DNA from: Clostridia bacterium
Lineage (GTDB): Bacteria; Bacillota; Clostridia; UMGS1883
NCBI GenBank assembly: GCA_017466275.1
Contig: JAFTUL010000008.1
Span: 1 to 42,185 of the forward strand
DNA: 42,185 nucleotides
Reading direction: 5' to 3'
Position 1 is the first letter of the stretch. Each line of letters starts with the position of its first letter. Below, one piece after another: positions 67 through 23,742 of the stretch. Both the position numbers and the translations under genes were made by a program. Under the pieces are notes generated by a model. It was not told the origin of the DNA, ran no database searches, and was given only the letters and a program-made list of their open reading frames with translations.

Positions 67-1449
67 TTATATAGATTTATTCAAAAAAGCTTTTATATAT
101 TCAATCTGTACTTCAATTGATGCAACTGATGTGCCACCTGCGGAAATACGCTTTTCGGCACAATTTTTAAGGTCGATTTCAGCATATAAGTCTTCCTCGA
201 AAAGGTTATCAAATTCCTTGTATTCGGGAAGAGTAAGCGTTTCAAGTGTTTTGCCCTCGGCAACACATTTGCCTACAATCTGACCAACTGTCTTATACGC
301 ACTGCGGAAAGGCTGACCTTTTTTTACAAGATAGTCTGCAAGGTCTGTTGCATTTATGAAGCCCTCACCTGCAGCGGCATACATCTTGTCTTTTCTTACG
401 GACATTGTTTCAATCATAGGAGCAAATACGCTGAGGCATTTTTTAACGGTCTCGCTACTGTCAAATATTGCTTCCTTATCCTCCTGCATATCCTTATTGT
501 ATGCAAGTGGAATACCCTTTAAGATTGTCAGCATTGCCATAAGGTCACCGTACACTATGCCGGTTTTCCTGCGGACAAGCTCTGCCATATCGGGGTTTTT
601 CTTCTGGGGCATAATTGATGAACCCGTTGTGTAAGAATCGTCAAGCTCAACGAATTTGAATTCCCAGGATGACCACAAAATTACTTCCTCTGCAAAACGG
701 GAAAGGTGTGTCATAATAAGAGCAAATGCACTCATAAGCTCCACGCAGAAATCACGGTCGGAAACGCCATCAATACTGTTTAATGTAATTCCGTCAAAAC
801 CGAGAAGCTTCGCTGTCATTTCGCGGTCGGTTTCGTAGGTTGTACCTGCCAACGCACAAGAGCCGAGGGGGGAGAAGTTCATTCTTTTTACGGCATCCTC
901 AATTCTGCCCATATCACGAATAAACATCATTGCATAGGCACAAAGGTGATGTGCAAACATAATCGGTTGCGCACGCTGAAGGTGTGTATAACCGGGGAGA
1001 ATTGTTTCCTTGTTTGCCTCTGCCTGCACTAAAATAGCACCTAAAAGCTTTTTTATAAGTGCAATGATTTCCTGTGCTTCATCACGCATAAAAAGGCGGA
1101 TATCGAGAGCAACCTGGTCATTACGGCTGCGTGCTGTGTGTAATCTTTTACCCACGTCACTGATTCTTTTGGTAAGCTCTGGTTCAACAAACATATGAAT
1201 ATCTTCCGCATCAAAATCGAACGCAAGTTTTCCGTCGTTAAGGTCGGAAAGAATTTCTTTAAGTCCCTTTATAATTGTATCACAGTCACTCTGTGAAATT
1301 ATGTTGCACGCTGCCAGCATTGTTGCATGTGCAATAGAGCCTTCAATATCCTGCTTATACATTTTGCAGTCAAAATGTATGGAAGAGTTAAAATCGTCAG
1401 CTTCTTTATCGAGGGCTTTGGAGAAACGCCCTGCCCACATCTTATCCAT
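67..1449 (-). CDS. argH: Argininosuccinate lyase
   Basis: 460-aa ORF with N-terminus MDKMWAGRFSK and the fumarate-lyase family signature GSSIMPQKKNPD. Lies directly downstream of argG. Confidence 0.97.
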   Translation of the reverse strand: MDKMWAGRFSKALDKEADDFNSSIHFDCKMYKQDIEGSIAHATMLAACNIISQSDCDTIIKGLKEILSDLNDGKLAFDFDAEDIHMFVEPELTKRISDVGKRLHTARSRNDQVALDIRLFMRDEAQEIIALIKKLLGAILVQAEANKETILPGYTHLQRAQPIMFAHHLCAYAMMFIRDMGRIEDAVKRMNFSPLGSCALAGTTYETDREMTAKLLGFDGITLNSIDGVSDRDFCVELMSAFALIMTHLSRFAEEVILWSSWEFKFVELDDSYTTGSSIMPQKKNPDMAELVRRKTGIVYGDLMAMLTILKGIPLAYNKDMQEDKEAIFDSSETVKKCLSVFAPMIETMSVRKDKMYAAAGEGFINATDLADYLVKKGQPFRSAYKTVGQIVGKCVAEGKTLETLTLPEYKEFDNLFEEDLYAEIDLKNCAEKRISAGGTSVASIEVQIEYIKAFLNKSI

Positions 1450-1473
1450 TAAAACACCTACTTTAAAGTATTA

Positions 1474-1496
1474 GGCTGGTGACAGTGTCACCAGCC
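1474..1496 (-). other. Intercistronic GC-rich hairpin between argG and argH
   Basis: 10-bp perfect stem GGCTGGTGAC / GTCACCAGCC with a 3-nt loop, 18 nt after the argG stop. No clear U-tract on the minus strand, so a processing/stability element or weak attenuator is more likely than a full terminator. Confidence 0.4.
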
Positions 1497-1514
1497 ACAA
1501 ATTTTAGTTTAGAA

Positions 1515-2741
1515 TTATTTATTCTTGTTCTGAGCGTCAACCATAGCCTGCACTGCAATGGGAAGACCGTAAAGGTTGATAAAGCCTTCAGAATCCTTCT
1601 GGTTATAGTCGCTTTCGCCGAATGTTGCAATTTCTTCAGAGTAAAGAGAGTAATCGCTCCATACACCTGCGTTAATCATATTACCCTTGTAGAGCTTAAG
1701 TCTTACCTTACCGGTAACCTTTTCCTGAGTTTTGTCAACGAATGCACTGAGAGCCTCACGAAGAGGTGTAAACCACTGACCGTTGTAAACAAGCTCTGCA
1801 AAGGTGATGGAAAGCTTCTGCTTTTCGTGGAGAGTCATCTTGTCAAGGCAGATTGATTCGAGAACGCTGTGTGCCTTGTAAAGGATTGCACCACCGGGAG
1901 TTTCGTAAACACCACGGCACTTCATACCTACAAGACGGTTTTCAACGATGTCAAGAAGACCGATACCGTTCTTTCCACCAACTTCATTGAGGGCAAGGAT
2001 AATTTCCTTTGCACTCATTTTTTTGTCGTTGAAAGCTACGGGAACACCCTGCTCAAAGTCAAGTGTGATATATGTGGGTTCATCGGGAGCCATAATGGGA
2101 GATACGCCCATTTCAAGGAAACCGGGCTTCTCATACTGCGGCTCATTACCTGTATCCTCGAGGTCAAGACCCTCGTGAGAAAGGTGCCAGAGGTTCTTAT
2201 CCTTGGAATAGTTTGTTTCACGGTTAATCTTAAGAGGAACAGTGTGTGCTTCTGCATATTCGATTTCCTCTTCACGGGACTTGATATCCCAGATTCTCCA
2301 GGGTGCGATAATGGGCATCTTGGGAGCAAAGTGCTTGATAGCAAGCTCAAAACGAACCTGGTCATTACCCTTACCTGTACAGCCGTGGCAGATTGCATCT
2401 GCACCCTCTTTAAGAGCTATTTCAACAAGACCTTTTGCAATGCAGGGACGTGCATGGCTTGTGCCGAGAAGATATTCCTCGTATACTGCACCTGCCTTCA
2501 TTGTGGGGATGATGTATTCATCTACATACTCTTCTGTAAGGTCAAGTACATAAAGCTTGGAAGCACCTGTCTTTAATGCCTTTTCTTCAAGACCGTCAAG
2601 TTCGTCATTCTGTCCTACATTACCTGCAACTGCGATAACTTCACAGTTGTTGTAGTTTTCCTTAAGCCACGGAATAATAATTGATGTGTCAAGTCCGCCG
2701 GAATAGGCGAGAACTACTTTTTTAATATCTTTTTTATCCAT
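1515..2741 (-). CDS. argG: Argininosuccinate synthase
   Basis: 408-aa ORF with the N-terminal ATP-PPase motif [11 protein letters not shown]. Strong RBS AAAGGAGAT 7-8 nt upstream of the ATG. Confidence 0.97.
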
Positions 2742-3055
2742 TTTAATAATCTCCTTTTTTTAGCCGAAACAACCAATACTGAATGCGCCTTAAACGGCGA
2801 AATTTTGGCAGTTTTCGGCTTGTCGTCTTTATAATGCACAAAGCATTATTGCATCCTCCGTACCAAAAACTGCAAAAAATTTCGCTCGTTTAAGGTCGAA
2901 GAATTTTACAATAGCAGATTTTTGTCTGTGCAAGGCAAAAACGGAGCAAATATTCGTTATATTTGCGAGTATTTTAACACAGCAGAGGCGGAAATCTGCA
3001 TTATAAAATCGCATTTAGTGTTGGTTGCTTCGGCTATCAATCTTTCATTGAAAAC

Positions 3056-3084
3056 AGTATAACACTAAATGTATAATTATGCAA
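3056..3084 (-). promoter_or_regulatory. Putative sigma-A promoter of argGH (-35 TTGCAT, 17-nt spacer, -10 TATACT on the minus strand)
   Basis: The minus strand reads TTGCAT (3084-3079), a 17-nt spacer, then TATACT (3061-3056). The same -35 and its flanks recur upstream of argC at 13497-13502. Confidence 0.5.
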
Positions 3085-3091
3085 GTCTTTT

Positions 3092-3156
3092 TGCATAAAA
3101 ATTCATAAATTTTTGAATATTCGTGCATAAATTATAATTTTATGCACGAATATTCA
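3092..3156. promoter_or_regulatory. Cluster of ARG-box-like (ArgR/AhrC operator) sequences, including an 18-bp perfect inverted repeat
   Basis: TGCATAAAAATTCA (3092-3105) fits the ARG-box pattern TGAAT-W4-ATKCA in reverse orientation. TGAATATTCGTGCATAAA (3114-3131) and its exact reverse complement (3139-3156) flank a 7-nt spacer. The cluster sits just upstream of the argG promoter and just after the carB stop. Confidence 0.55.
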
Positions 3157-3161
3157 TTTTT

Positions 3162-6100
3162 TTAATACTCGTAGATACCTTCAAATACCTTTTCAGCATC
3201 ACCGGTTAAGAATACGCCCTCGTCGGTATAACGAACGATAAGCTCGCCGCCCTCAACCCTTACGGAAATGTCGGTATCCTTTTCACAGTATCCGTTTTCA
3301 ACTGCCGCAATAGCTGCTGCACAGGCACCAGTACCGCACGCAGGTGTTTCACCGTTACCGCGTTCCCATACTCTCATTCTGATTGTACGCTTGTCAATAA
3401 TCTTTACAAACTCTGTATTAATACGCTCGGGGAAGATAGGTGCGTTTTCAAAACGGGGACCGATTGTGGGAACATCAATGTTGTATACGTTGTCACAGAT
3501 AACAACACAATGGGGATTACCGATTGAAAGACAGGTAATGTCGTACTTCTTACCACCGATTGTAACGGTTTCGTTTATAATCTTGTCACCGGGCATATCC
3601 ACGGGGATAGCCGCAGGTGAAAATTCTGCATCGCCCATCTGAACTGTTACACTTGTAACCTTTCTGTCGAAGAGGTGGAGAGTCAGCTTTCTGACACCGC
3701 TTGCAGTTTCAACTGTGATATGACGGTGCGATACATACCCATTATCCCAGAGGTACTTACCTACACAGCGGATAGCGTTACCTGCCATTCTGCCCTCACT
3801 ACCGTCGGTGTTGAATATACGCATCTTGGCATCTGCAACCTCAGACTTTTCAATAAGAACAAGTCCGTCTGCGCCGATACCTCTGCGACGGTCACTAAAC
3901 ACAATTGCAAGTGCTTCGGGGAATTTGATGCTTCCGTCAAAGTTATTGATGAATATATAGTCGTCGCCTGTACCTTCCATCTTGATGAAAGGAATGTTAA
4001 GCTTCTCTGTACGGAGCTTTGCAATGTCTGTAAGCTCTGTATTGTACTGGTTGAAACGGCTTAAGAGAATGTCAGCCAATGCATGTGCAGTATCAAGAGA
4101 GGTAAGACACGCAATGCTGAGCTGAAGTGCCCTGCGGTGAAGTCTTATAAACTTCTCAATTTCCTTGGGACGGCCGGAGTTGGTATGGATTATATAACCA
4201 ATCTTTTCGCTTTCAAGGAGTGAGTAAATCTTTTCACCCTCAACAGTTTCAACTGGAATACCGAGAGAATCAATGATAAGTGCATTCTTTTCATCGGCAT
4301 AGATTTCAAGTCCTGCATCAGAAAGCTTCTTTGCAAGCTCGATAAGGTCATACTTATCCTTGGAATCAACGCTGATATATACTCCGCCACGGCTTTCAAG
4401 GTTGAAGCCTGCGGAAATGAGTCCCTTGAAGAGTGCTTCATTAAGAGTCTTACCAATACCTAAAACTTCACCTGTGGACTTCATTTCAGGTCCTAAGATG
4501 GAGTTGATGCCTGAAAGCTTCTCAAATGAGAACACGGGAACTTTAACGGCATAGTAGGGGGGCATCTTGTAAAGTCCGCTTCCATATCCGAGGGAAAGGA
4601 GAGGTGCTCCCTGCATAACCTGTGTTGCAAGGTCAATCATAGGAATGCCTGTTACTTTACTGATATAAGGAACTGTTCTTGACGCTCTGGGGTTAACTTC
4701 AATAACATAAAGTTCGTTGTCATATACAACATACTGAATATTGATAAGTCCCTGTGTCTTAAGGGAAAGTGCCAGCTTTGTTGAGCAGTCAACAATCTTG
4801 TCAAGCATCTTGTCAGTTATATTGAAGGGAGGATATACAGCAATGGAGTCACCGCTGTGTACACCTGCACGCTCAACGTGTTCCATAATACCTGGGATAA
4901 GAACATCCTTACCGTCACTTATAATATCAACTTCAAGCTCTTTACCCATCATATATTTATCAACGAGAACGGGGTTCTCAATCTTCTGTGAAAGGATGAT
5001 GTCCATATACTGGATAACATCCTCTTCCTTGTAAGCAATTGTCATATTCTGACCGCCGATTACATAGGAGGGACGGAGAAGTACGGGGTAGCCGAGCTTT
5101 TCAGCAGCTTCGAGGGCTTCTTCCTTAGCCATTACGGAAAGACCGCTGGGACGCTTGATATCAAACTTTTCAAGGAGTGCATCGAACTGTTCGCGGTCCT
5201 CCGCCATATCGATACTCTTTGCAGAAGTACCAAGAATCTTGATTCCGCTTTCGTCAAGGAATTTAACAAGCTTGATAGCTGTCTGTCCGCCGAATGCAAC
5301 AACTACGCCCTCAGGCTTTTCAACCTCAATAACATTCATTACATCCTCGGGAGTGAGAGGCTCGAAATAAAGCCTGTCCGCTGTGTCAAAGTCAGTAGAA
5401 ACTGTTTCGGGGTTGTTATTAATGATAATAACCTCATACCCCATTTCCTTAAGTGCCCATACACAATGAACGGAGGAGTAGTCGAATTCGATACCCTGAC
5501 CGATTCTTATAGGACCGGAGCCGAGAACGATAACCTTTTTATTATCAGTAGAAACTGCTCTTGCTTCACAGTCTTCGTCATATGTTGAGTAGAAATAAGG
5601 CGTCTTTGCCTTGAATTCGCCACCGCAGGTGTCAACCATCTTGTAAACACAGTTCTTGTGTGCAGGGCATTTGCAACCGCTGATTTCCTCAAGGGCTTTG
5701 TCTGTAAAGCCAAGCTTTTTACCCTTTTCGTAAAGCTCGGGAGTAAGGTTTCCGCGGATGCTCTTTTCGAAGTCTACAATATTTTTAATCTTGGAAAGGA
5801 ACCACTTGTCAATTCTTGTGATTTCGTTGATTCTGTCAATTGTAATTCCTCTAACCAACGCTTCGTAAACAGTGAAAATTCTAAGGTCGTCAAGGTCATA
5901 AAGCTTCTTTTCAATATCTTCAATAGCCTGAACTTCCTTGTGCTGGAGAGTTTCTGTCTTAAGCTCTGCACCTCTTACAGCCTTCATAAGAGCTGATTCA
6001 AAGGAGTTACCGATAGACATAACCTCACCGGTAGCCTTCATCTGTGTGCCGAGCTTTCTGTCAGCATACACAAACTTGTCAAAGGGCCACTTGGGGAACT

Positions 6101-7166
6101 TAACTACCATATAGTCAACTGCAGGCTCGAAGCAAGCGTATGTTACGCCGGTAACATCATTTTTGATTTCATCAAGTGTGTAGCCCAGTGCAATCTTTGT
6201 AGTAACCTTTGCAATGGGGTAACCAGTTGCCTTACTTGCAAGGGCGGAAGAACGAGATACACGGGGGTTAACCTCGATTACCGCATATTCAAAGCTGTCG
6301 GGATTAAGAGCAAACTGACAGTTACAGCCACCTTCAATCTTAAGCTCTGTGATAATATCAAGTGCCGCTTTTCTGAGCATTGAATATTCTTTATCGGAAA
6401 GAGTTGCCGCAGGAGCAACAACTATACTGTCGCCTGTGTGAATACCAACGGGGTCAACATTTTCCATACTGCAGATGGTGATTGCATTGCCTGCATGGTC
6501 GCGCATAACCTCGAACTCTACTTCTTTCCAGCCGTAGATGTACTTTTCAATAAGTACCTGCGTAATGGGGGAAAGAGTAAGACCGTTGTTTGCAATCTTT
6601 GCAAGAGTATCGGCATCGTATGCAACACCGCCGCCTGCACCACCGAGGGTGAATGCGGGACGAACTATTACGGGGTAGCCGATTTTCTCTGCAATGCTGA
6701 GACATTCATCAACTGTTGTAGCAATGTCGGACGGAATACAACCCTGACCGATTTTGAGCATTGTTTCCTTGAAAAGCTCACGGTCCTCTGCACGGTCAAT
6801 AGCCTCAGCATTTGTACCGATAAGCTTAACGCCCATTTTGTCAAGGTAGCCTTCCTTGTCAAGCTGCATTGCAATTGTAAGACCTGTCTGTCCACCAAGG
6901 GATGCAAGGAGACTGTCGGGTCTTTCCTTTTCAATGATTCTCTTTATTGTATCTGCTGTAAGAGGCTCAAGATAGATTTCATCTGCAAGAGCCTTATCTG
7001 TCATAATTGTAGCAGGGTTGGAGTTTACAAGAACGATATTAACTCCCTCATCACGGAGGACACGGCAAGCCTGAGCGCCTGCGTAGTCAAATTCGGCAGC
7101 CTGTCCGATAACGATAGGGCCTGAACCGATAACGAGTACCTTTTTGATGTCTTTATTTTTAGGCAT
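3162..7166 (-). CDS. carB: Carbamoyl-phosphate synthase large subunit fused in frame to a C-terminal diaminopimelate epimerase (DapF) domain
   Basis: Residues ~1-1055 are colinear with CarB: two ATP-grasp repeats and an MGS-like tail ending ...TSLDTAHALADILLSRF. The last ~279 aa (nt 3165-4001) carry DapF hallmarks FIKMEGTGDDYIFI, GNAIRC, GNPHCV and ACGTGACA. No stop codon or RBS lies at the junction. Preferred start is ATG 7166 (MPKNKDIKKVLVIGSGPI) with RBS GGAGGAA 6 nt upstream; the ORF track extends to 7181. Confidence 0.9.
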   Translation of the reverse strand: MPKNKDIKKVLVIGSGPIVIGQAAEFDYAGAQACRVLRDEGVNIVLVNSNPATIMTDKALADEIYLEPLTADTIKRIIEKERPDSLLASLGGQTGLTIAMQLDKEGYLDKMGVKLIGTNAEAIDRAEDRELFKETMLKIGQGCIPSDIATTVDECLSIAEKIGYPVIVRPAFTLGGAGGGVAYDADTLAKIANNGLTLSPITQVLIEKYIYGWKEVEFEVMRDHAGNAITICSMENVDPVGIHTGDSIVVAPAATLSDKEYSMLRKAALDIITELKIEGGCNCQFALNPDSFEYAVIEVNPRVSRSSALASKATGYPIAKVTTKIALGYTLDEIKNDVTGVTYACFEPAVDYMVVKFPKWPFDKFVYADRKLGTQMKATGEVMSIGNSFESALMKAVRGAELKTETLQHKEVQAIEDIEKKLYDLDDLRIFTVYEALVRGITIDRINEITRIDKWFLSKIKNIVDFEKSIRGNLTPELYEKGKKLGFTDKALEEISGCKCPAHKNCVYKMVDTCGGEFKAKTPYFYSTYDEDCEARAVSTDNKKVIVLGSGPIRIGQGIEFDYSSVHCVWALKEMGYEVIIINNNPETVSTDFDTADRLYFEPLTPEDVMNVIEVEKPEGVVVAFGGQTAIKLVKFLDESGIKILGTSAKSIDMAEDREQFDALLEKFDIKRPSGLSVMAKEEALEAAEKLGYPVLLRPSYVIGGQNMTIAYKEEDVIQYMDIILSQKIENPVLVDKYMMGKELEVDIISDGKDVLIPGIMEHVERAGVHSGDSIAVYPPFNITDKMLDKIVDCSTKLALSLKTQGLINIQYVVYDNELYVIEVNPRASRTVPYISKVTGIPMIDLATQVMQGAPLLSLGYGSGLYKMPPYYAVKVPVFSFEKLSGINSILGPEMKSTGEVLGIGKTLNEALFKGLISAGFNLESRGGVYISVDSKDKYDLIELAKKLSDAGLEIYADEKNALIIDSLGIPVETVEGEKIYSLLESEKIGYIIHTNSGRPKEIEKFIRLHRRALQLSIACLTSLDTAHALADILLSRFNQYNTELTDIAKLRTEKLNIPFIKMEGTGDDYIFINNFDGSIKFPEALAIVFSDRRRGIGADGLVLIEKSEVADAKMRIFNTDGSEGRMAGNAIRCVGKYLWDNGYVSHRHITVETASGVRKLTLHLFDRKVTSVTVQMGDAEFSPAAIPVDMPGDKIINETVTIGGKKYDITCLSIGNPHCVVICDNVYNIDVPTIGPRFENAPIFPERINTEFVKIIDKRTIRMRVWERGNGETPACGTGACAAAIAAVENGYCEKDTDISVRVEGGELIVRYTDEGVFLTGDAEKVFEGIYEY

Positions 7167-8211
7167 TCTTGCTTCCTCCAATCATTTCAAAAAATTTGTT
7201 GTACAGAAAGTTTGTTTCGTTGGGTCCGTCACCGGCAATGGGATGGAACTGAATTGAAACTGCATTCTTTCCGTTATATTCAATACCCTCACAGCTCTTG
7301 TCGTTAAGGTTTTCATAAGTAACTGTTGCACATTCAGGAAGTGTATCAGTTACAACTGTATAGCTGTGATTCTGGCTTGTTATATAAACACGACCTGTTT
7401 CTATCTCTCTAACGGGCTGGTTTGCACCTCTGTGTCCGTAGGTAAGCTTTTCAACCTTTGCACCGTTTGCCATTGCAAGGAGCTGGTGACCAAGGCCTGT
7501 TGCGAAGATGGGCTTTTTACCGAAAACTTCCTTAATAACATTTATAGCATCTATCATATCCTCAGGATTTCCGGGACCGTCGGAAAGGTAAACCGCATCA
7601 TAGGATAAAAGCTCGTCCGCTTTTGTGTTATAGGGGAGAACAGTAACTGTTGCACCTTTGTCAGCAAGTGTCTTAACGGCTGACTTGGTAGTACCGAAGT
7701 CAAGGAGAGCAATTTTTGCATCTCCGTCACCAACTGTGTACTTTTCCTTGGTGCTGACAATTGAAACTGCATCCTTTGTATCAAAGGCGGTAAGATTTGC
7801 ACCGTTAGGCTCTTTTGTGGTGATGCGGGCGGTCATTGTACCCTCTTCACGGATAATCTTGGTGATTTCTCTCGTGTCGATTCCGCATATACCCATAATG
7901 CCCTGTTCTTTAAGGAAATTATCTAAAGTTCCCTCACAGCGGAAGTTTGAGGGCATATCACAGATTTCACGAACAATATATCCCTTTAAATGCACCTTTT
8001 CACTTTCCATATCGGAGTAAATCATACCGTAGTTACCGATAAGGGGATATGTCTGAACAAGAATCTGTCCGTAGTAGCAAGGGTCTGTAAGAGCTTCAAT
8101 ATAGCTTCCCATAGATGTGGAAAAGACGATTTCGCCGGTTTCCTCTGTTACTGCACCGAAGCTTTCACCACAGAAAACTTTTCCGTTTTCCAGAATCAAA
8201 TATGCTTTCAT
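7159..8211 (-). CDS. carA: Carbamoyl-phosphate synthase small subunit with a degenerate glutaminase triad
   Basis: 350-aa ORF colinear with CarA (LSDGPGNP, ...GLGHQLLAMANGA..., QNHSY, QFHP). The nucleophile position reads ATGLGHQ instead of GICLGHQ, and HPE is replaced by HPI. Confidence 0.92.
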   Translation of the reverse strand: MKAYLILENGKVFCGESFGAVTEETGEIVFSTSMGSYIEALTDPCYYGQILVQTYPLIGNYGMIYSDMESEKVHLKGYIVREICDMPSNFRCEGTLDNFLKEQGIMGICGIDTREITKIIREEGTMTARITTKEPNGANLTAFDTKDAVSIVSTKEKYTVGDGDAKIALLDFGTTKSAVKTLADKGATVTVLPYNTKADELLSYDAVYLSDGPGNPEDMIDAINVIKEVFGKKPIFATGLGHQLLAMANGAKVEKLTYGHRGANQPVREIETGRVYITSQNHSYTVVTDTLPECATVTYENLNDKSCEGIEYNGKNAVSIQFHPIAGDGPNETNFLYNKFFEMIGGSKNA

Positions 8212-8249
8212 ATAACCATGCCTTTCTGAATTTTAGTATAATAATTGGC

Positions 8250-9152
8250 TTACGCCATAAGTTTAACCATAACTGCCTTTTGTGCGTGGAGTCTGTTTTC
8301 AGCTTCTTCAAAAATTTCGTCTGCGTGCTGTTCGATTATCTCAGCGGTGATCTCCTCACCACGGTGTGCGGGAAGACAATGAAGAACCATTGCACCGTCA
8401 TTTGCAACCTGCATAAGCTCAGAATTAATCTGATAATCCTTGAAGATTTTTGCTCTTTCCTGAAATTCTTCTTCCTGCCCCATAGATGCCCATACATCTG
8501 TATAAAGAACATCTGCAGCGGAAGCAGCTTCCTTAATATCGGAAGTACAGGTGAATTTTCCAGTTTCATATGCCCACTTCATAATGTCGGCATCAGGCTC
8601 ATACCCCTTGGGACAGGCGATGGAAACTTCCATACCCATCTTGATACCGCCGACGATAAGGGAGTTTGCCATATTGTTACCGTCACCCACGAAACACATC
8701 TTGAGTCCCTCAAGCTTGCCTTTCTTTTCACGTATTGTCATAAGGTCAGCAAGCACCTGACAGGGATGACAGTAGTCTGTAAGACCGTTTATAATCGGAA
8801 TGTTACCGAATGCTGCCAAATCCTCAACCTCTTTCTGTTCAAAAGTACGAATCATAATACCGTCAAGAAATCTGGAAAGAACACGTGCTGTATCCTGAAT
8901 AACCTCACCACGGCCTATCTGCAGGTCGCGTGGGCTTAAGAAAAGCGCTGTACCGCCAAGGTCAAATATACCAACTTCAAAAGATACTCTTGTTCTTGTG
9001 GAAGACTTCTGGAAAATCATACCGAGAGTCTTACCTTTCAAAAGGTGATGCTCGATACCGTTTTTCTTTTCATACTTCAGCTTATCCGCAAGGTCAAGAA
9101 TTTCTACAATCTCTTCCTTGGTAAGGTCACCGAGTTTTAATAAGTGTTTCAT
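8250..9152 (-). CDS. argF: Ornithine carbamoyltransferase
   Basis: 300-aa ORF with the carbamoyl-phosphate motif SSTRTR, ornithine-site motifs DVWASMG and HCLPAHRGEE. Stop/start overlap with argD. Confidence 0.95.
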   Translation of the reverse strand: MKHLLKLGDLTKEEIVEILDLADKLKYEKKNGIEHHLLKGKTLGMIFQKSSTRTRVSFEVGIFDLGGTALFLSPRDLQIGRGEVIQDTARVLSRFLDGIMIRTFEQKEVEDLAAFGNIPIINGLTDYCHPCQVLADLMTIREKKGKLEGLKMCFVGDGNNMANSLIVGGIKMGMEVSIACPKGYEPDADIMKWAYETGKFTCTSDIKEAASAADVLYTDVWASMGQEEEFQERAKIFKDYQINSELMQVANDGAMVLHCLPAHRGEEITAEIIEQHADEIFEEAENRLHAQKAVMVKLMA

Positions 9153-10312
9153 AATTTACATGCCTCCTTGATTATGTCAAGAGCTTTTATAAGCTCATTG
9201 GTTTCTATGTTAAGCGGGGGAAGAAGTCTTACCTTATCCTTTGCAGTAAGTACCAACACACCCTTATCTATGCAGTAGTTTACAACTTCCTTTGCTTCCT
9301 TGGTTGTTTTAATTCCCATCATCAGTCCAAGACCGGAGATGCTTTCAATACCCTCTGCCCCCGAAAGTGTTTCACGGATAAGGTTAGCTTTTTTAGTAAC
9401 CTCCTCCAAGAATTCATCGGTAAGTCTTGACAGAACATTTACCGCACCGCTGCAGCAAACGGGGTTTCCGCCGAAGGTGGAGCCGTTAAGTCCGGGTTCA
9501 AAAATATCCTTTACCTTTTCACCGAGCATTGTTGCACCGAGGGGAAGACCGCCTGCAAGTCCCTTTGCAGTTGAAACAACATCAGGCTTGATACCGTAGT
9601 GCATATATGCGTAAAGCTTACCCGTTCTGCCGTTTCCTGTCTGTACCTCGTCAATAATCAGTACAAGGTCGTTTTCCTTGCAGAGTCTGGCTGCTTCTTC
9701 AATAAATTCTTTATCAAGAGCGTTAACGCCGCCCTCACCCTGAACAATTTCAATCATTATACCGCAGCACTTGTTGTTTTTGACTGCTTCATTAAGCGAG
9801 TTGATGTCATTGGGTGTTGCGTGCACAAAGCCCTCTGTAAGTGGAAGAAATTCCTTGTGGAAGTTTTCCTGTCCCGTTGCAGCAAGTGTTGTATGTGTTC
9901 TTCCGTGGAAGCTTTTTTCAAGAGTTACTATTGTATAGTAATCAGCACCTTTGTTGAGTGCACCGTACCTTCGTGCAACCTTTATGGCACATTCGTTTGC
10001 TTCTGCGCCGGAGTTGGAGAAGAATACATTCTTCATCCCCGTCCTTTCGCAGATCATCTGGGCAAGGTCAGCACAAGGTGATGTGTAGTAGAGGTTGGAG
10101 GTATGGGCAAATTTGTCAAGCTGTGCCTTTACTGCATCCACCCACTCGCTGTCACACGCACCGAATGTATTTACGGCAATACCGCTTCCTAAATCGATAT
10201 ATTCCTTACCGTCGCTGCCCTTAAGGATTGCTCCCTTTCCTCCGACAATTTCCACGGGGAAACGGCCATAGGTAGGTGCGACAAACTTACTGTCTTTTTC
10301 AAATGTGTTCAT
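9149..10312 (-). CDS. argD: Acetylornithine aminotransferase
   Basis: Class-III PLP aminotransferase with the PLP-lysine context DVVSTAKGLAGG. Preferred start is ATG 10312 (MNTFEKD) with RBS AAGGAG 7 nt upstream; the ORF track start 10336 contains that RBS. Confidence 0.93.
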   Translation of the reverse strand: MNTFEKDSKFVAPTYGRFPVEIVGGKGAILKGSDGKEYIDLGSGIAVNTFGACDSEWVDAVKAQLDKFAHTSNLYYTSPCADLAQMICERTGMKNVFFSNSGAEANECAIKVARRYGALNKGADYYTIVTLEKSFHGRTHTTLAATGQENFHKEFLPLTEGFVHATPNDINSLNEAVKNNKCCGIMIEIVQGEGGVNALDKEFIEEAARLCKENDLVLIIDEVQTGNGRTGKLYAYMHYGIKPDVVSTAKGLAGGLPLGATMLGEKVKDIFEPGLNGSTFGGNPVCCSGAVNVLSRLTDEFLEEVTKKANLIRETLSGAEGIESISGLGLMMGIKTTKEAKEVVNYCIDKGVLVLTAKDKVRLLPPLNIETNELIKALDIIKEACKL

Positions 10313-10377
10313 AGTCAGACTCCTTTTATATCCCAAATTACGGTGCGTACATAAAGTACTGCACCGTAAAAATAAGT

Positions 10378-11232
10378 TTACTCTCCCTTGACAAACATAG
10401 TACCGATACCTTCGTTGGTCAAGGTTTCGATAAGTATGGAATGGGGGATTCTGCCGTCAATTATAAATACTTTTCTCACACCGCTGTTGATTGCATCAAT
10501 ACAGCACTCAACCTTGGGAATCATACCGCCGGAGATAACACCCTCCTCAACAAGCTTGGGTGCTTCATTCACAACGATTTTGGAAATAAGAGTAGAGGGG
10601 TCATCCTTATCACGAAGAATACCCTCAATATCAGTCATGGAAATAAGACTTTCAGCACCTAAAATTCCTGCAATTTTGGATGCTGCTGTATCAGCGTTGA
10701 TATTATAAACATTGCCCTCTTTGTCACAGCCCACTGTGGAAATTACGGGAATATAACCCTTTTCCAATACATCTGTAATAGGCTCTACATTAACATTGGT
10801 AATTTCACCAACGAAGCCCAGTTCGGGATTGAGAACTTCTGCCTCAATCATATGACCGTCAATACCGCAAAGGCCGACAGCCTTACCACCTTTGTGATGA
10901 AGAAGGTTTACAAGATTCTTGTTAACCTTACCTGCAAGTACCATTTGTACAATGTCAACTGTTTCTTTATCAGTAACACGCAGACCGTTTACAAACTGGG
11001 ATTCCTTGCCGACAGCCTTGAGCATCTGAGTGATTTCGGGACCGCCACCGTGAACGAGGACTACTTTAATACCGATAAGGGAAAGAAGAACAATATCCCC
11101 CATAACGGCATCCTTAAGCTCGTCATTAATCATTGCATTACCGCCGTACTTAACAACGATAATTTTATCTGTATATTTCTGTATGTAAGGAAGTGCCTGT
11201 GTAAGGACTTCTGCGCGCTGTGCGTTTGTCAT
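10378..11232 (-). CDS. argB: Acetylglutamate kinase
   Basis: Amino-acid kinase fold with IVVKYGGNAM, VLVHGGGP and NINADTAA. Preferred start is ATG 11232 (MTNAQRAE) with RBS GGAGGAA upstream. Confidence 0.95.
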   Translation of the reverse strand: MTNAQRAEVLTQALPYIQKYTDKIIVVKYGGNAMINDELKDAVMGDIVLLSLIGIKVVLVHGGGPEITQMLKAVGKESQFVNGLRVTDKETVDIVQMVLAGKVNKNLVNLLHHKGGKAVGLCGIDGHMIEAEVLNPELGFVGEITNVNVEPITDVLEKGYIPVISTVGCDKEGNVYNINADTAASKIAGILGAESLISMTDIEGILRDKDDPSTLISKIVVNEAPKLVEEGVISGGMIPKVECCIDAINSGVRKVFIIDGRIPHSILIETLTNEGIGTMFVKGE

Positions 11233-11267
11233 TGTTCTTTCCTCCAAAACTTTTCTTCGTTACAGTA

Positions 11268-12509
11268 TCATGTGCGGTAGTCACCGTTGATTTTTACATA
11301 ATCGTAAGTCAGGTCGCATCCCCAGGCAGTGGCAGATACATCACCGTCGTTAAGGTTTATTATAATATTAATTTCCTTTTCAAGCAATATTTTCTTTGCA
11401 ATTTCTTCAGAAAAATCTACACCTGCACCGTTTTTGCAAACTGCAATTGTTCCCTCTTTAGAACTGAAAGATACGTCGATTTTGTTAACATCCACATCTG
11501 CACCACTGTAACCGATTGCACAAAGCACTCTGCCCCAGTTTGCATCTGCACCGAACATAGCCGCTTTAAGCAGGGAAGAGCAGATAACGGATTTTGCAAC
11601 TGTTTTTGCACATTTTTCATCCTTTGCACCGCTTACCGCACACTCAAGAAGCTTTGTTGCACCCTCGCCATCACCTGCAATCATCTTGCACAGATGGATT
11701 GTAACTGTGTTAAGAGCCTTTGCAAAAATTTCAAAATCCTCGCCCTCAGACTCAATCATAGTATTTCCTGCAAGGCCGTTTGCCATAACACTGACCATAT
11801 CATTTGTGGAGGTATCACCGTCAATGCTAATCATATTGAAAGTGTTCTTTATATCTGTTGAAAGTGCTTTCTGAAGCATTTCGGGAGAAATTGCGGCATC
11901 TGTTGTAATGAACACAAGCATTGTTGCCATATTGGGATGAATCATACCGCTGCCTTTAGCAATACCTGCAATCTTACACTCCTTACCGCCAAGGGTAAAG
12001 CTTACTGCAATTTCCTTTTTTACAAGGTCTGTTGTGAGGATTGCTTCGGAAGCATAATCTGCGTGCTCGCTGTCTTTGCCTAGACCTGCTGCAAGCTCTT
12101 TCATTCCGTTTGCAATCGGTTCAAGGTCAAGAGGCTGACCTATAACACCGGTAGATGCTACGATAACATCCTCAGCCTTGACATCTGTATGTTCCGAAAC
12201 AAGCTTGCACATTGCTTCTGCAATTTCTATTCCGTTTGCGTTACAGGTGTTTGCATTACCGCTGTTGCAGATAACTGCCTGTGCGTAACCGTTTGCAATG
12301 TTGTTTTTTGTAACTGTAAGGGGAGCACCCTTAACGAGATTCGTTGTATATGTAGCAGCCGCAGCAGCGGGAACATCACTTACGATAAGTGCAATGTCAC
12401 GCTTTGTACGGTTTTTACGGATTCCGCAGTGAATACCGTTTGCAGAAAACCCTTTCGGAGCACATACGCCACCATCTATTATTTTAAACATCTGTATCAT
12501 TCCTTTCAT
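11268..12509 (-). CDS. argJ: Bifunctional ornithine acetyltransferase / N-acetylglutamate synthase
   Basis: 413-aa ORF with the autoproteolysis site MATMLVFITTDA. ATG 12509 overlaps the argC stop (ATGA). An alternative start is ATG 12491 (MFKIIDGGV) with RBS AAAGGAA. Confidence 0.95.
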   Translation of the reverse strand: MKGMIQMFKIIDGGVCAPKGFSANGIHCGIRKNRTKRDIALIVSDVPAAAAATYTTNLVKGAPLTVTKNNIANGYAQAVICNSGNANTCNANGIEIAEAMCKLVSEHTDVKAEDVIVASTGVIGQPLDLEPIANGMKELAAGLGKDSEHADYASEAILTTDLVKKEIAVSFTLGGKECKIAGIAKGSGMIHPNMATMLVFITTDAAISPEMLQKALSTDIKNTFNMISIDGDTSTNDMVSVMANGLAGNTMIESEGEDFEIFAKALNTVTIHLCKMIAGDGEGATKLLECAVSGAKDEKCAKTVAKSVICSSLLKAAMFGADANWGRVLCAIGYSGADVDVNKIDVSFSSKEGTIAVCKNGAGVDFSEEIAKKILLEKEINIIINLNDGDVSATAWGCDLTYDYVKINGDYRT

Positions 12510-13437
12510 ATATCGAGCATTGCAGAGGGTTTTTCACCCATTACAATGTTCATACATTCAAGTGCCGCACCGGAGGCACCCTTACCGAGATTGTCATATC
12601 TTGCAATGAGGAGGATTCTCTCATCATTACCGGAAACGGTTATCTGCATTGAATCCTTGAAAGAAAGTGCATTTGCACGTATAAGTCCGCTTTCATCAAT
12701 GCTTTCAAGATAAGTAACAATTTCGCCTGTATATTTTTCTTTGTATGCCTTTTTAATATCTTCTACGGTAAATCCGTCGTTAAGCTGGCTTTTGAAAATC
12801 GGTACGGTTACTGCCATACCACTGTAAAAATCCGATACAATGGGGCAGAATATGGGGGCATTTGTAAGCCCTGTCACCTTGCCCATTTCGGGAAGATGCT
12901 TGTGGGTCTGACCAAGTGCATACTGACGGGGAGCATCGAAAAGCTTATTTCTTTCTTCATCCTCATATTCTGCAATCATTTTCTTACCACCGCCGCTGTA
13001 ACCTGTAATGCTGTGGCAGGTGAGAAGAGTGTCTTTGTCAATAATCCCATTTTCAATGAGGGGGTATACAAGAGCAATGAATCCGCTTGCGTGACAGCCT
13101 GGCACTGCAATTCTTTTTGCAGAAGCTACCTTTTCAAAATGCTCCTTTGAAAGCTCGGGAAAACCGTATGCCCAGTTATCATTTGTTCTGTGTGCCGTGG
13201 AGGTGTCAAGAACAACTACGTTTTCATTTTCAATCATATTTACTGCTTCTATTGCCGCCGCGTCGGAAGACAAAGGAACGCAATGTCGCAGGAATTAAGT
13301 GCTTTCTTTCTTGCATCGTTATCCTTGCGAAGCTCCTCGGGAAGCTTTATAAGTTCTATATCATTTCTTTTGGAAAGCCTTTCGACTATCCTCAGACCCG
13401 TAGTGCCGGCACTGCCGTCAATAAATACCTTTTTCAT
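12506..13437 (-). pseudogene. argC: N-acetyl-gamma-glutamyl-phosphate reductase (short/type-2 form) interrupted by a 1-nt frameshift
   Basis: Two adjacent ORFs together cover one ArgC. The 5' part MKKVFIDGSAGTTGLRI...DIAFLCLP then reads TRRQ-stop (stop 13249-13251). The 3' part continues in another frame as (S)DAAAIEAVNM...VPGCHASG... The frames switch at ~13262-13267 (CTT CCG ACG versus expected CTT CCN GAC). Confidence 0.85.
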
Positions 13438-21018: not shown

Positions 21019-21044
21019 AAAGGGAGATGCTCGCATCTCCCTTT
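21019..21044 (+). terminator. Rho-independent terminator after the MATE gene
   Basis: AAAGGGAGAT-GCTCGC-ATCTCCCTTT hairpin starting 4 nt after the stop, followed by a short T-rich stretch. Confidence 0.7.
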
Positions 21045-21045
21045 C

Positions 21046-21074
21046 TTGACTTTGTAAGGCATTGCAGATATAAT
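21046..21074 (+). promoter_or_regulatory. Putative sigma-A promoter of the GTPase-NYN fusion gene
   Basis: TTGACT (21046-21051), a 17-nt spacer, then TATAAT (21069-21074), ~35 nt upstream of the ATG. Confidence 0.65.
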
Positions 21075-21108
21075 ATAATAGAAACTTTTAAGAAAAGGAA
21101 ACTACCTT

Positions 21109-23667
21109 ATGAAACGAATTGCACTGGGAATACTGGCACACGTTGACAGCGGAAAAACAACCCTTTCCGAAGCGATGCTTTATACGGCAGGGGAAATTCG
21201 TACCCTTGGCAGGGTTGACCACCGTGATGCCTTCCTTGATACAAATGAAATAGAAAAAGACCGTGGAATCACCATATTTTCCAAACAAGCGGTGATAAAT
21301 CTTGAGAACACGCAGATAACACTCCTTGATACCCCCGGTCACGTAGATTTTTCGGCAGAAACGGAAAGAGTTTTGTGGACACTTGATGCCGCAGTACTGG
21401 TTGTCAGCGGAAGCGAGGGTGTGCAGAGTCATACTCAGACTTTGTGGAAGCTTCTTTCGGAACATGCTATTCCAACATATATTTTTGTCAATAAAATGGA
21501 TATGGACGGAACCGATAAGGACAAGATTTTAGCTGACCTTAACAAGAGTTTGGGCAGCGGTTTTGTCGTGTTTAATAATGAGGATAGGGAAGCGTTTTTT
21601 GAGGAAGCTGCATTATGCAGTGAGGAGCTTTGTAATTCGTTCCTTGAAAACGGAACAATTACTGATGAAGAAATTTCAGAAGCAATCGAAAGCAGGAAGA
21701 TGTTCCCCTGCTATTTCGGTTCTGCACTGAAGCTTCAGGGTGTAGAGGAATTTTTGAGTGGTGTTGATAAATACACCACCTATAATGGGGAAAATCCTCG
21801 GCTTGGGGCAAGGATTTTTAAAATTTCCGAGGATGAGAAAGGAAACCGCCTTACCCATATGAAAATAACAGGAGGAGTTCTCCGTGTCCGTGATAAGATA
21901 CAGTCGGGCGATGCCGAGGAAAAAGTCAGCGAAATCCGTGTGTACTCCGGTGCAAAGTACAAAAATGTGCAGGAAGTGTATGCAGGCGATGTATGTGCCG
22001 TTTTGGGTATCACAACTCTTTTGGGCGGTCAGGGAATAGGATTTGAGGATAATTCTCCTGCCCTTACATTGGAGCCTGTATTTAATTACCGTGTGGTGCT
22101 TGAGGATGGGGTAGACCCCCGTGTAGCCCTTGCACAGCTCCGCAAATTGGAGGAAGAGGAAACTCAGCTTCGTGTAGGGTGGAACAGTGCCCTTGGTGAA
22201 ATAAATATTCAGCTTATGGGCGAGGTGCAGCTTGAAGTATTGCAGAAAATTCTCGCAGACCGTTTTAAACTTAATGTAGAGTTTGCTCAGGGAAGCATCA
22301 TATATAAAGAAACTATAACAGCCCCCGTTGAGGGTGTGGGACATTACGAGCCACTTCGTCATTATGCCGAGGTGCATCTTCTTCTTGAACCATTAAAAAG
22401 AGGGGCAGGACTGGTGTTTGATACGGACTGCAGTGAGGACTATTTGGGCAAAAACTGGCAAAGGCTTGTGCTTACCCACCTTAATGAAAGAAGACATATC
22501 GGGGTCCTTACGGGGAGTGCAATTACCGATATGAAAATAACCCTGAAATCGGGAAAAGCACACCTGAAACATACCGAGGGCGGTGATTTCAGACAGGCAA
22601 CCTACCGTGCGGTACGTCACGGATTGAGATGTGCCGAAAGCATACTTCTGGAGCCTTATTATGAGTTTATTTTAGAAGTTCCCACCGACTCTACGGGCAG
22701 GGCGATGACCGACCTTTCTGAGATGGGTGCGGAAATGTCTGCCCCCGATTTAATAGGGGATATGTCCGTTATAAAGGGAAGTGCCCCAGTAAGCAAAATC
22801 CGTTCATATCAGCGTAGCGTAACCTCCTATACTCACGGTCTCGGAAAACTCTCTTGCTCGTTCAAGGGCTACGGCACTTGTGTGAATCAGGAAGAGGTTA
22901 TTGCCGAAACGGGTTATAACTGTGACAGTGACGTTGAAAATACAGCAGACAGCGTATTCTGTGAACACGGTGCAGGCTTCAATGTACCGTGGCATCAGGT
23001 GACAGAATATATGAACCTTGAAAGTATCTTCGATGAAAAAACAGAAGACATCACACCCCATCATTTTGCAAAGAAAACCTCATCCTCGTACAGCGATGAT
23101 GAGCTTATGGCAATATTTGAACGTACCTACGGAAAAATTGTCCGTAAAAACCACAACGCAATGCGTACTCCCAAGGATGCGGCACCGCCGAAGAAACACC
23201 GCAGTGTACCGCAGAAGCAGGGACCCGGCTATCTCCTTATTGACGGTTATAACATAATATTTGCATGGGACGAGCTTAAAGAGGTTGCAAAGGATAACCT
23301 CGAGGATGCACGCAATATGTTAATTGACCGTGTATGCTCTTACCGTGCACTTCACTCACAGGAAATTATCCTTGTGTTTGATGCCTACAAGGTTAAAGGA
23401 AACCGCGGGGAGGTGGAGAAAATCCATAACATCAGCGTGGTTTACACCAAGGAGGCACAGACTGCCGATGCCTATATTGAAAAGACTGCACACGAGCTTG
23501 GAAAGAAGCATCACGTACAGGTTGCAACCAGCGACGGGCTTGAGCAGATGATAATATTGGGAAGCGGTGCAGTCAGGATAAGTGCCGCGGCATTTATCAA
23601 GGATATGGAGGATACAGGCAGGGAAATAGAGAAAATTCTGCGGGACATTTCAAATAAAAATGTATAA
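21109..23667 (+). CDS. TetM/EF-G-like translational GTPase fused to a C-terminal Rae1/YacP-type NYN (PIN-like) endoribonuclease domain
   Basis: G1 AHVDSGKT, G3 DTPGH and G4 NKMD; the N-terminus MKRIALGILAHVDSGKTTLSEAMLY resembles TetM/TetO. A GTPase-plus-domains-II-V body of ~640 aa is followed by a basic linker. Residues 705-852 (nt 23221-23664) carry YacP/Rae1 motifs LLIDGYN, LVFDAY, QTADAYIE and VATSDGLEQ. Confidence 0.9.
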   Translation: MKRIALGILAHVDSGKTTLSEAMLYTAGEIRTLGRVDHRDAFLDTNEIEKDRGITIFSKQAVINLENTQITLLDTPGHVDFSAETERVLWTLDAAVLVVSGSEGVQSHTQTLWKLLSEHAIPTYIFVNKMDMDGTDKDKILADLNKSLGSGFVVFNNEDREAFFEEAALCSEELCNSFLENGTITDEEISEAIESRKMFPCYFGSALKLQGVEEFLSGVDKYTTYNGENPRLGARIFKISEDEKGNRLTHMKITGGVLRVRDKIQSGDAEEKVSEIRVYSGAKYKNVQEVYAGDVCAVLGITTLLGGQGIGFEDNSPALTLEPVFNYRVVLEDGVDPRVALAQLRKLEEEETQLRVGWNSALGEINIQLMGEVQLEVLQKILADRFKLNVEFAQGSIIYKETITAPVEGVGHYEPLRHYAEVHLLLEPLKRGAGLVFDTDCSEDYLGKNWQRLVLTHLNERRHIGVLTGSAITDMKITLKSGKAHLKHTEGGDFRQATYRAVRHGLRCAESILLEPYYEFILEVPTDSTGRAMTDLSEMGAEMSAPDLIGDMSVIKGSAPVSKIRSYQRSVTSYTHGLGKLSCSFKGYGTCVNQEEVIAETGYNCDSDVENTADSVFCEHGAGFNVPWHQVTEYMNLESIFDEKTEDITPHHFAKKTSSSYSDDELMAIFERTYGKIVRKNHNAMRTPKDAAPPKKHRSVPQKQGPGYLLIDGYNIIFAWDELKEVAKDNLEDARNMLIDRVCSYRALHSQEIILVFDAYKVKGNRGEVEKIHNISVVYTKEAQTADAYIEKTAHELGKKHHVQVATSDGLEQMIILGSGAVRISAAAFIKDMEDTGREIEKILRDISNKNV

Positions 23668-23713: not shown

Positions 23714-23742
23714 TTGACTAAAAAGACCCGAGGCTGTATAAT
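23714..23742 (+). promoter_or_regulatory. Putative sigma-A promoter of the PFOR gene
   Basis: TTGACT (23714-23719), a 17-nt spacer, then TATAAT (23737-23742), giving a ~90-nt leader. Confidence 0.65.

Follow-up and report, generated by a model that had tools for sequence, protein, structure and literature searches.

A clostridial fusion of an EF-G/Tet-like GTPase with a Rae1-type nuclease: a candidate factor for RNA cleavage near stalled or collided ribosomes

Background

What does a ribosome-associated endonuclease do when it is built into the same polypeptide as a translational GTPase? The question is raised by a gene in a 42,185-nt stretch of contig JAFTUL010000008.1 of Clostridia bacterium (assembly GCA_017466275.1), referred to as the window below. 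The product has 852 amino acids (aa; residue numbers are those of this fusion protein) and joins an EF-G/Tet-like GTPase to a nuclease domain of the Rae1 (YacP) type. The original prediction, made from the DNA letters, saw in it a GTPase that delivers a nuclease to the ribosomal A site. We favour, with a probability of roughly 0.5, a housekeeping factor in which the Rae1-type nuclease is tethered to its own ribosome-docking GTPase and cuts RNA near a stalled or collided ribosome.

The architecture is already present in the literature and in databases, and the window gene adds a further member to a very large family. A TetM-like/NYN_YacP fusion was reported by Atkinson in 2015 (BMC Genomics 16:78; PMC4342817) in 'ten species', together with a proposal to test for RNase activity on rRNA; Additional file 8 of that paper includes R. 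albus 7, E. eligens, E. rectale, B. proteoclasticus, C. cellulolyticum, C. lentocellum, C. phytofermentans, C. thermocellum and D. hafniense. Matelska et al. (2017, NAR 45:6995; PMC5499597) noted the fusion as well and left its role open.

Rae1 of B. subtilis is the sole characterised NYN_YacP member, and it cuts mRNA (PMC12407103). Its discoverers first docked it into the A site, as recounted in the same paper, but the same authors have abandoned that model and now place cleavage 12 nt upstream of the A-site codon (PMC12407103). A 2026 preprint reports that Rae1 makes substrates for trans-translation by transfer-messenger RNA (tmRNA) on collided ribosomes (PMC13622287). The passages of these two papers that a text-term search returned do not mention the fusion, those with 'fused' concerning strain and reporter constructs.

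Results

Both catalytic centres are intact in one polypeptide

Pfam scans, a structure model computed with AlphaFold2 (AF2) and comparisons with homologues delimited the open reading frame (ORF) and its domains as follows.

21109..23667, + strand: whole ORF, EF-G/Tet-like GTPase plus Rae1-type nuclease (Pfam, homologue comparisons); ATG start, 852 uninterrupted codons, stop codon included in the coordinates
21109..21777, + strand: G domain, aa 1-223, with a short Tet-like G' insert (Pfam GTP_EFTU at 4-223, 163.6 bits)
21808..22287, + strand: domains II (aa 234-303) and III (aa 322-393) (Pfam and AF2 model)
22294..22635, + strand: domain IV, aa 396-509 (Pfam EFG_IV, 60.3 bits)
22645..22881, + strand: domain V, aa 513-591 (Pfam EFG_C, 60.0 bits)
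23227..23664, + strand: NYN_YacP (Rae1-type) endoribonuclease domain, aa 707-852 (Pfam and alignment with PDB 5MQ8)

All six Pfam domains scored at or above their gathering scores, so the profile check that the original prediction had proposed for the EF-G domains and NYN_YacP came out positive. EF-G_D2 gave 38.1 bits at aa 234-303, and EFG_III at aa 322-393 gave 27.0 bits, equal to its cut-off of 27. The GTPase motifs are complete: G1 AHVDSGKT (10-17), the G2 threonine T55, G3 DTPGH (74-78), G4 NKMD (128-131) and G5 SAL (205-207). When tested for membership of the EF-G/EF2 family, the protein was found to have G1 to G5, the catalytic His after DxxG (His78, within DTPGH) and domains II-V in EF-G order. 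The AF2 model, based on an alignment of 97 sequences, has an overall pLDDT (predicted local distance difference test) of 87.7 and matches ribosome-bound structures of EF-G and TetM with E about 1e-53 in Foldseek. The motifs and layout claimed for a translational GTPase in residues 1-~640 were thus correct, but its extent was overestimated, since domain V ends at about residue 591.

At the C-terminus, NYN_YacP scored 164.4 bits at aa 709-848 against a gathering score of 24.6 (E 2.9e-48), and the motifs LLIDGYN, LVFDAY, QTADAYIE and VATSDGLEQ were all found in the translation. The domain aligns with residues 3-144 of B. subtilis Rae1/YacP (PDB 5MQ8; E 4.7e-28), with D712, D758, D787 and D809 falling on the four catalytic residues D7, D53, D81 and D104 of Rae1; the active-site set also includes N715. 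The predicted YacP/Rae1 match and its retained acidic residues are therefore borne out by the profile score and by four aligned Asp residues. The fusion protein shares the NYN_YacP fold with Rae1 and, judged from its GTPase body, a link to the ribosome. It differs from Rae1 in that the domain forms the C-terminus of an 852-aa GTPase whose gene is monocistronic and lies elsewhere on the chromosome, beside genes for MatE and pyruvate:ferredoxin oxidoreductase (PFOR), instead of encoding a single-domain protein in an mrnC-yacO-yacP neighbourhood. In addition, the fused domain stops at about Rae1 residue 147 and lacks the C-terminal tail of Rae1.

Conservation was analysed in 70 sequences, comprising the window protein and 69 representatives that are about 40-50% identical to it. 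G1 (AHVD[AS]GKT), the G2 Thr, G3 DTPGH, G4 NKxD and G5 SAL vary little or not at all, His78 is kept in 69 of the 70 sequences, and all 70 have the four nuclease Asp residues and N715. Judged from this pattern, both centres are under strong purifying selection, and both the GTPase and the nuclease activity are evidently needed.

A single gene in a family far larger than reported

The published R. albus 7 fusion (YP_004106010.1) and the window protein share 55% identity over their whole length (residues 3-857 versus 2-852). The window protein has no essential difference from the published TetM-like/NYN_YacP fusions, with which it shares an identical domain order, the domain IV tip RAHxKHTEGGDFR, the SVFCxHG.. 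motif and the NYN motifs.

The 120 best homologues, down to 58% identity, all have the same Pfam architecture. When a library of 50%-identity representatives was searched with residues 595-852, 439 representatives were found at E <= 1e-30; the best 150 of these 439 were fusions of 800-1150 aa matched at their C-termini, or evident fragments. A phyletic survey scanning one genome per GTDB species returned relatives in at least 587 species genomes. These genomes and several hundred 50%-identity clusters put the size of the family far above ten species. The best 80 genomes belong to Oscillospiraceae, Ruminococcus (including R. flavefaciens ND2009), Ruminiclostridium, Monoglobus, Congzhengia, Faecalispora, Lachnospiraceae and other Clostridia, and members are abundant in the dominant Clostridia of gut and rumen (Agathobacter rectalis, Ruminococcus, Monoglobus, Oscillospiraceae).

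At all 80 genome loci, as in the window, the match consisted of one in-frame high-scoring segment pair (HSP), which exceeded 800 aa in 77 of the 81 sequences (80 loci plus the window), the other four being cut by contig ends. An assembly artefact or two separate genes are ruled out by the single in-frame HSP in 81/81 sequences, and a stop or frameshift separating two genes in sister genomes, against which the original prediction had cautioned, was not seen at any of the 80 loci. No second NYN copy was present within the window or within the 80 loci.

Some members have long low-complexity inserts (proteins of 1156 aa and 1069 aa), either rich in Gly/Ser/Arg/Asp and located inside the G' region or rich in Gly/Ser/Ala and located inside the tether described below; both positions therefore appear to tolerate big insertions. 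A free-standing 'NYN domain-containing protein' of C. difficile, found in plasmid-collection records of about 97-150 kb, shows 55% identity, over 119 aa, with the fused NYN domain. Because it is as close to the fused domain as many fusions are to each other, this similarity suggests that the fused domain derived from a clostridial free YacP.

Domain IV separates the family from Tet proteins and EF-G

Domain IV is the best-conserved part of the protein: its mean majority fraction is 0.73, whereas the nuclease reaches 0.67 and the G domain 0.62, and 39 of the 114 columns of domain IV are at least 90% conserved. Like the two catalytic centres, it is under strong purifying selection. The tip of the domain is family-specific and rich in His and Lys (408-EGVGHYEPLRHY-419 and 483-KAHLKHTEGGDFR-495). 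The tip motif [RK]-A-H-x-K-H-T-E-G-G-D-F-R occurs family-wide, and the loop I motif EGxGH[YF]EPLRHY is conserved as well. Such hyper-conservation argues for a specific contact in the decoding centre.

These features bear on the possibility that the gene encodes a tetracycline ribosomal-protection protein equipped with an accessory nuclease. The protein does resemble Tet(M) and Tet(O) (PDB 3J9Y, 4V6V) in its five-domain layout and short G' insert, and the best full-length matches in a PDB sequence search were Tet(O) with 252 bits and Tet(M) with 245 bits (residues 1-592); TetM 3J9Y is 26-27% identical to the fusion model in Foldseek. The best among the NCBIfam models, whose curated cut-offs were used for Tet and EF-G membership, was tet_protect (NF012153). 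However, its score of 418.4 is far from the cut-off of 775, and the TetM/W/O/S and Tet(M) models were missed by even more (NF033148, 283.5 versus 1100; NF012155, 243.9 versus 1420), while Thermus EF-G matched nearly as well in the PDB search, with 227 bits. The motif YYSPVS in domain IV loop III is the tetracycline-displacing motif of Tet(M)/(O); it aligns with 484-AHLKHT-489 of the window protein, a replacement that is kept across the family and brings in an EF-G-like His, H485, which aligns with the tip His of EF-G (T. thermophilus H573). Searched alone, domain IV matched only EF-G, and no Tet proteins, at E <= 1e-3. Finally, the alignment with Tet(M)/(O) ends at residue 592, and the C-terminal Tet helix (protein end at ~640 aa) is replaced by a different conserved module, beyond which the fusion carries its nuclease. 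The 'TetM-like N-terminus' of the original prediction consequently holds for the N-terminal half, but not for domain IV, which matches EF-G. By sequence the fusion is not a bona fide Tet protein and a simple tetracycline-protection role is unlikely; with the genomic evidence given below, we consider a Tet protein with an accessory nuclease very improbable.

Is it then a variant of EF-G? The protein shares with T. thermophilus EF-G (PDB 4V90, 4M1K) the overall fold, the best domain IV match, the tip His and the complete GTPase motifs. It differs in a shorter G' insert and in loop I of domain IV, which is 4 residues shorter than in EF-G and lacks GGRGQ. The scores for EF-G models were also under the cut-offs (TIGR00484, 275.5 versus 659.4; NF009381, 320.9 versus 583), and because of this shortfall (321 versus 583) a role as translocase is unlikely. 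In sequence terms the window protein is nearly equidistant from Tet proteins and EF-G. Scores below both sets of cut-offs, combined with domain IV motifs of its own, argue that the family is neither a Tet protein nor a translocase; it is best described as a distinct lineage of the EF-G family, whose domain IV is a putative decoding-centre probe with its own constrained function.

The RefSeq product name given to relatives by PGAP (Prokaryotic Genome Annotation Pipeline) is 'TetM/TetW/TetO/TetS family tetracycline resistance ribosomal protection protein', which speaks for the tetracycline explanation; WP_306784676.1 of Agathobacter rectalis NZ_CP143948.1 (6120-8921 of the locus excerpt) is an example. 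Since the NCBIfam Tet cut-offs are missed and the Tet loop III motif is lacking, this naming is probably an over-annotation, and resistome surveys based on product names may over-count tetracycline resistance in gut metagenomes.

A conserved module and a tether lie between domain V and the nuclease

The 115 residues that link domain V to the nuclease were divided into the following parts.

22882..23028, + strand: post-domain-V module, aa 592-640 (conserved, acidic, predicted fold)
23029..23226, + strand: predicted flexible tether, aa 641-706 (pLDDT, family charge and length, conservation by region)
23095-23136, + strand: conserved helix ELMAIFERTYGK, aa 663-676, ELxxIFERTYG (family conservation)

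In the family alignment, S615, F617 and G621 of the module are invariant, and C591, Y603, D608, C618, H620, G623, W628 and H636 are nearly so. The module contains 10 D/E and no K/R residues. Its predicted fold consists of a helix (594-601), a beta-hairpin (615-619/622-626, with the turn SVFCxHGAG) and a second helix (628-634), with a pLDDT of about 90. AF2 resolved residues 592-640 with the 97 diverse sequences, while with 46 close sequences the whole of 592-705 was of low confidence. The module had no match in a Pfam scan at E <= 10, and a PDB profile search gave chance matches only (viral fusion glycoproteins, E >= 0.3). It was not seen in other architectures either, a profile search of 5.8 billion proteins having returned only short fragments of the fusion family.

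The tether begins with a variable acidic linker (aa 641-662), which is followed by the conserved helix and a basic stretch (aa 677-706; 8 K/R, 1 D/E). Across the family the basic stretch is variable, with a median length of 33 aa and a median net charge of +7, and by its composition this end of the tether looks like an RNA-binding arm. The original prediction had described a ~60-aa basic linker; this region is really the module, the acidic linker and the conserved helix, and only residues 677-706 are basic. In the 97-sequence model pLDDT falls below 50 at 647-661 and 678-698, the predicted disordered linkers, and across the family 89 to 218 aa (median 98) separate the SVFC motif from the first catalytic Asp. 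Variable length and low pLDDT thus point to a nuclease that is flexibly tethered to the GTPase body. Estimated from chain length and not from a ribosome model, the tether would span ~70 Å as a random coil and ~200 Å when fully extended, by which estimate the nuclease can sample the mRNA entry side of the bound ribosome.

The gene is predicted to be transcribed alone, within a housekeeping locus

Upstream of the ORF, the following signals were read from the sequence.

21019..21044, + strand: hairpin terminator of the upstream MatE gene, which ends at 21015 (G+C-rich stem of 11-12 bp, then a T run)
21046..21074, + strand: predicted sigma-70-type promoter, TTGACT (21046-21051), 17-nt spacer, TATAAT (21069-21074)
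21094..21101, + strand: Shine-Dalgarno-like AAAGGAAA, 9 nt before the ATG

The candidate promoter matches the consensus at 11 of 12 positions and starts right after the hairpin, which probably isolates the fusion gene transcriptionally from MatE. The downstream PFOR gene has a separate TTGACT-17-TATAAT at 23714-23742, so that the layout of terminator and two promoters argues for a monocistronic fusion gene. The uninterrupted ORF with its own TTGACT-17-TATAAT and the lack of operon partners had both been noted in the original prediction; the first was found again in the sequence, and the second agrees with this layout and with the neighbour survey of 81 loci described below. The expected 5' untranslated region (UTR) of ~27-30 nt appears too short to hold a leader peptide or an attenuator. 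As to the PFOR gene itself, the ORF list gives its start as 23751, but a strong GGAGG Shine-Dalgarno sequence precedes an ATG at 23833; the -10 element of its promoter ends at 23742, and the real start is probably 23833 (MARNKK...).

The gene lies immediately between MatE and PFOR, with SpoIIE two genes upstream. Further chromosomal neighbours comprise an arginine biosynthesis cluster, RNase J, Tgt, a CCA-adding enzyme and sugar-catabolism genes, and on this gene content the host chromosome is that of spore-forming Clostridia. In the sister genome GCA_054290705.1 the fusion protein is 94% identical and synteny is kept, the order being RNase J, Tgt, a three-gene insert, SpoIIE, MatE, fusion, PFOR. 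The GC content of the fusion gene and of each of its parts, overall and at third codon positions (GC3), matches that of the neighbours. No conserved neighbour, partner or immunity gene emerged from the 81 loci, in which the commonest neighbour family was present in at most 8.

Plasmid and phage collections were searched with tblastn, and full-length copies of the fusion were found in four records. Two 'plasmid' records are replicons of 252 kb and 518 kb (Agathobacter, Monoglobus), and the Agathobacter rectalis locus has housekeeping neighbours. In A. rectalis a BrnT toxin/CopG antitoxin pair lies directly upstream of the fusion on the opposite strand (5456-5964 of the locus excerpt); neither the window nor the sister genome has such a pair beside the fusion gene. 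The other two are 'UNVERIFIED: Bacteriophage sp.' records from human faeces (MT835563.1, MT835514.1), which match at least 91% of the C-terminal 268 aa. MT835563.1 encodes a full 875-aa fusion at 5397-8024, adjoining NAD(P)H-hydrate dehydratase, with a citrate transporter further along; no phage hallmark was found among the 10 ORFs tested, and the record is probably a misfiled bacterial contig. Carriage by mobile elements or phages was rejected on the grounds that the replicons are large with housekeeping neighbours (in the one examined) and that the phage record has no hallmark genes. By these criteria the fusion gene behaves as a vertically inherited housekeeping gene.

The locus also bears on two other explanations. 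As evidence against a Tet protein, the gene is chromosomal, syntenic and of normal GC, is not located on a mobile element, has a 5' UTR too short for a tet(M)-type leader, and is spread, apparently vertically, over at least 587 species genomes. An anti-phage or toxin-like effector that shuts down translation, in line with the defence module suggested in the original prediction, is the least probable explanation of all. Ribosome-targeting nucleases are common among defence effectors, and two 'Bacteriophage sp.' records carry the fusion. Against this, PADLOC defence models matched neither the fusion protein nor the upstream MatE and SpoIIE, the context is housekeeping with kept synteny, normal composition and no conserved partner or immunity gene, and the phage record examined is unverified and without a hallmark in its 10 ORFs.

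Elsewhere in the window, the arginine cluster at 67-13273 (argH, argG, carB, carA, argF, argD, argB, argJ, argC) contains a 1339-aa ORF at 3162-7181 on the minus strand. It has carbamoyl-phosphate synthase large-chain domains up to ~aa 1060 and a C-terminal DAP_epimerase domain in two stretches reaching aa 1332, and looks like an in-frame CarB-DapF fusion.

Discussion

How might such a protein work? In the housekeeping factor that we favour, the GTP form of the EF-G/Tet-like body (domains I-V) would bind the factor-binding site of the ribosome, and domain IV would reach the decoding centre. The recognised ribosome would be one that does not elongate normally: it would either be stalled, its A site empty or abnormal, or trail behind another in a collision. 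In disomes, the trailing ribosome is in the rotated pre-translocation state, a natural substrate of EF-G. The NYN nuclease, on its flexible tether of 89-218 aa whose last third is basic, would then cut RNA within reach. The likeliest target would be the mRNA between the collided ribosomes, on the entry side or just beyond it, and not inside the A site. Cleavage would free the ribosomes for tmRNA rescue (trans-translation), by analogy with free-standing Rae1 (PMC13622287). GTP hydrolysis would subsequently release the fusion factor.

The A site was the destination originally proposed for the nuclease: the GTPase would sense a vacant or stalled A site, and the NYN domain would cut the A-site codon in a RelE-like manner. 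In their ribosome complexes, EF-G and TetM fill the 30S A site with domain IV itself, and since the best-conserved region of the fusion protein would take up that space, the nuclease is unlikely to act there; cleavage in the A site is sterically unlikely by this analogy. The nuclease is moreover attached after domain V via 115 residues, and the premise that Rae1 acts in the A site, on which the original docking of Rae1 had been a point in favour, has been withdrawn by its authors (PMC12407103). The predicted fusion of GTPase and nuclease is real, with both catalytic centres intact, but we regard its use for A-site delivery as improbable.

The target might also be another RNA. The C-terminus of an EF-G-type factor lies beside 23S rRNA elements, and a nuclease placed there could cut rRNA near the GTPase-associated centre, the sarcin-ricin loop or the 30S shoulder, or a ribosome-bound tRNA, in rRNA maturation, in ribosome quality control, or in inactivation and turnover of ribosomes in starvation or sporulation. 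The basic tether could bind rRNA, the host is a spore-former with SpoIIE two genes upstream, and rRNA was the substrate for which Atkinson proposed an RNase test (PMC4342817). On the other hand, Rae1 cuts mRNA and the fused domain retains its active site. The promoter looks constitutive, while an enzyme that kills ribosomes would need tight control, of which none was seen; nor was an immunity or partner gene found in the 81 loci. We judge rRNA or tRNA as target to be unlikely, if clearly better placed than A-site delivery.

Several points weigh against the mRNA-cutting housekeeping factor itself. Rae1 cuts where the mRNA leaves the stalled ribosome, a long way from the factor site of that ribosome, and therefore the analogy holds only if the fusion sits on the trailing ribosome or cuts at a different site. 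The argument from reach uses the length of the tether as its single basis, and the mechanism does not account for the conserved modules 592-640 and 663-676. YacP-type NYN domains were originally proposed to process rRNA or tRNA (PMC5499597, PMC4342817). Full-text literature searches, outside which Leroy 2017 and Condon 2018 fell, found no functional study of the fusion family; the statement in the original prediction that no functional description was known is upheld in this respect, but the architecture had been reported in 2015 and 2017.

A more specific version of the favoured factor, which we put forward tentatively, is a self-contained bacterial factor for no-go decay. Here the GTPase would read the stalled or collided ribosome through the factor site and the domain IV tip and license the Rae1 nuclease, GTP hydrolysis acting as a timer. 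SmrB of E. coli, Cue2 of yeast and Dom34/Pelota-Hbs1 offer a functional analogy, as systems in which stalled or collided ribosomes recruit a nuclease or rescue factor, by way of a translational GTPase in the case of Hbs1 (PMC12407103). No homology is claimed, and the SMR and NYN nucleases have unrelated folds. Another distinction concerns the covalent link itself: to our knowledge, none of these systems includes a GTPase-nuclease fusion.

Relative to earlier reports, the new points are how large the family is, the evidence against its assignment to the Tet proteins, the hyper-conserved domain IV tip, the conserved post-domain-V module, the tether motif and the reinterpretation in the light of the Rae1 work of 2025-2026. 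The family was first noted in 2015 and has stayed uncharacterised since, despite its abundance in gut and rumen Clostridia. A natural fusion of a Rae1 nuclease with a factor-site GTPase is a strong, testable hint about how Rae1 finds stalled or collided ribosomes. It also offers a handle for cryo-electron microscopy, as GTPase-dead or GDPNP-trapped complexes should remain on the ribosome. If the no-go-decay version is true, it would show the targeting route of Rae1-type nucleases, and many gut Clostridia would have hard-wired in one polypeptide what Bacillus does with free Rae1.

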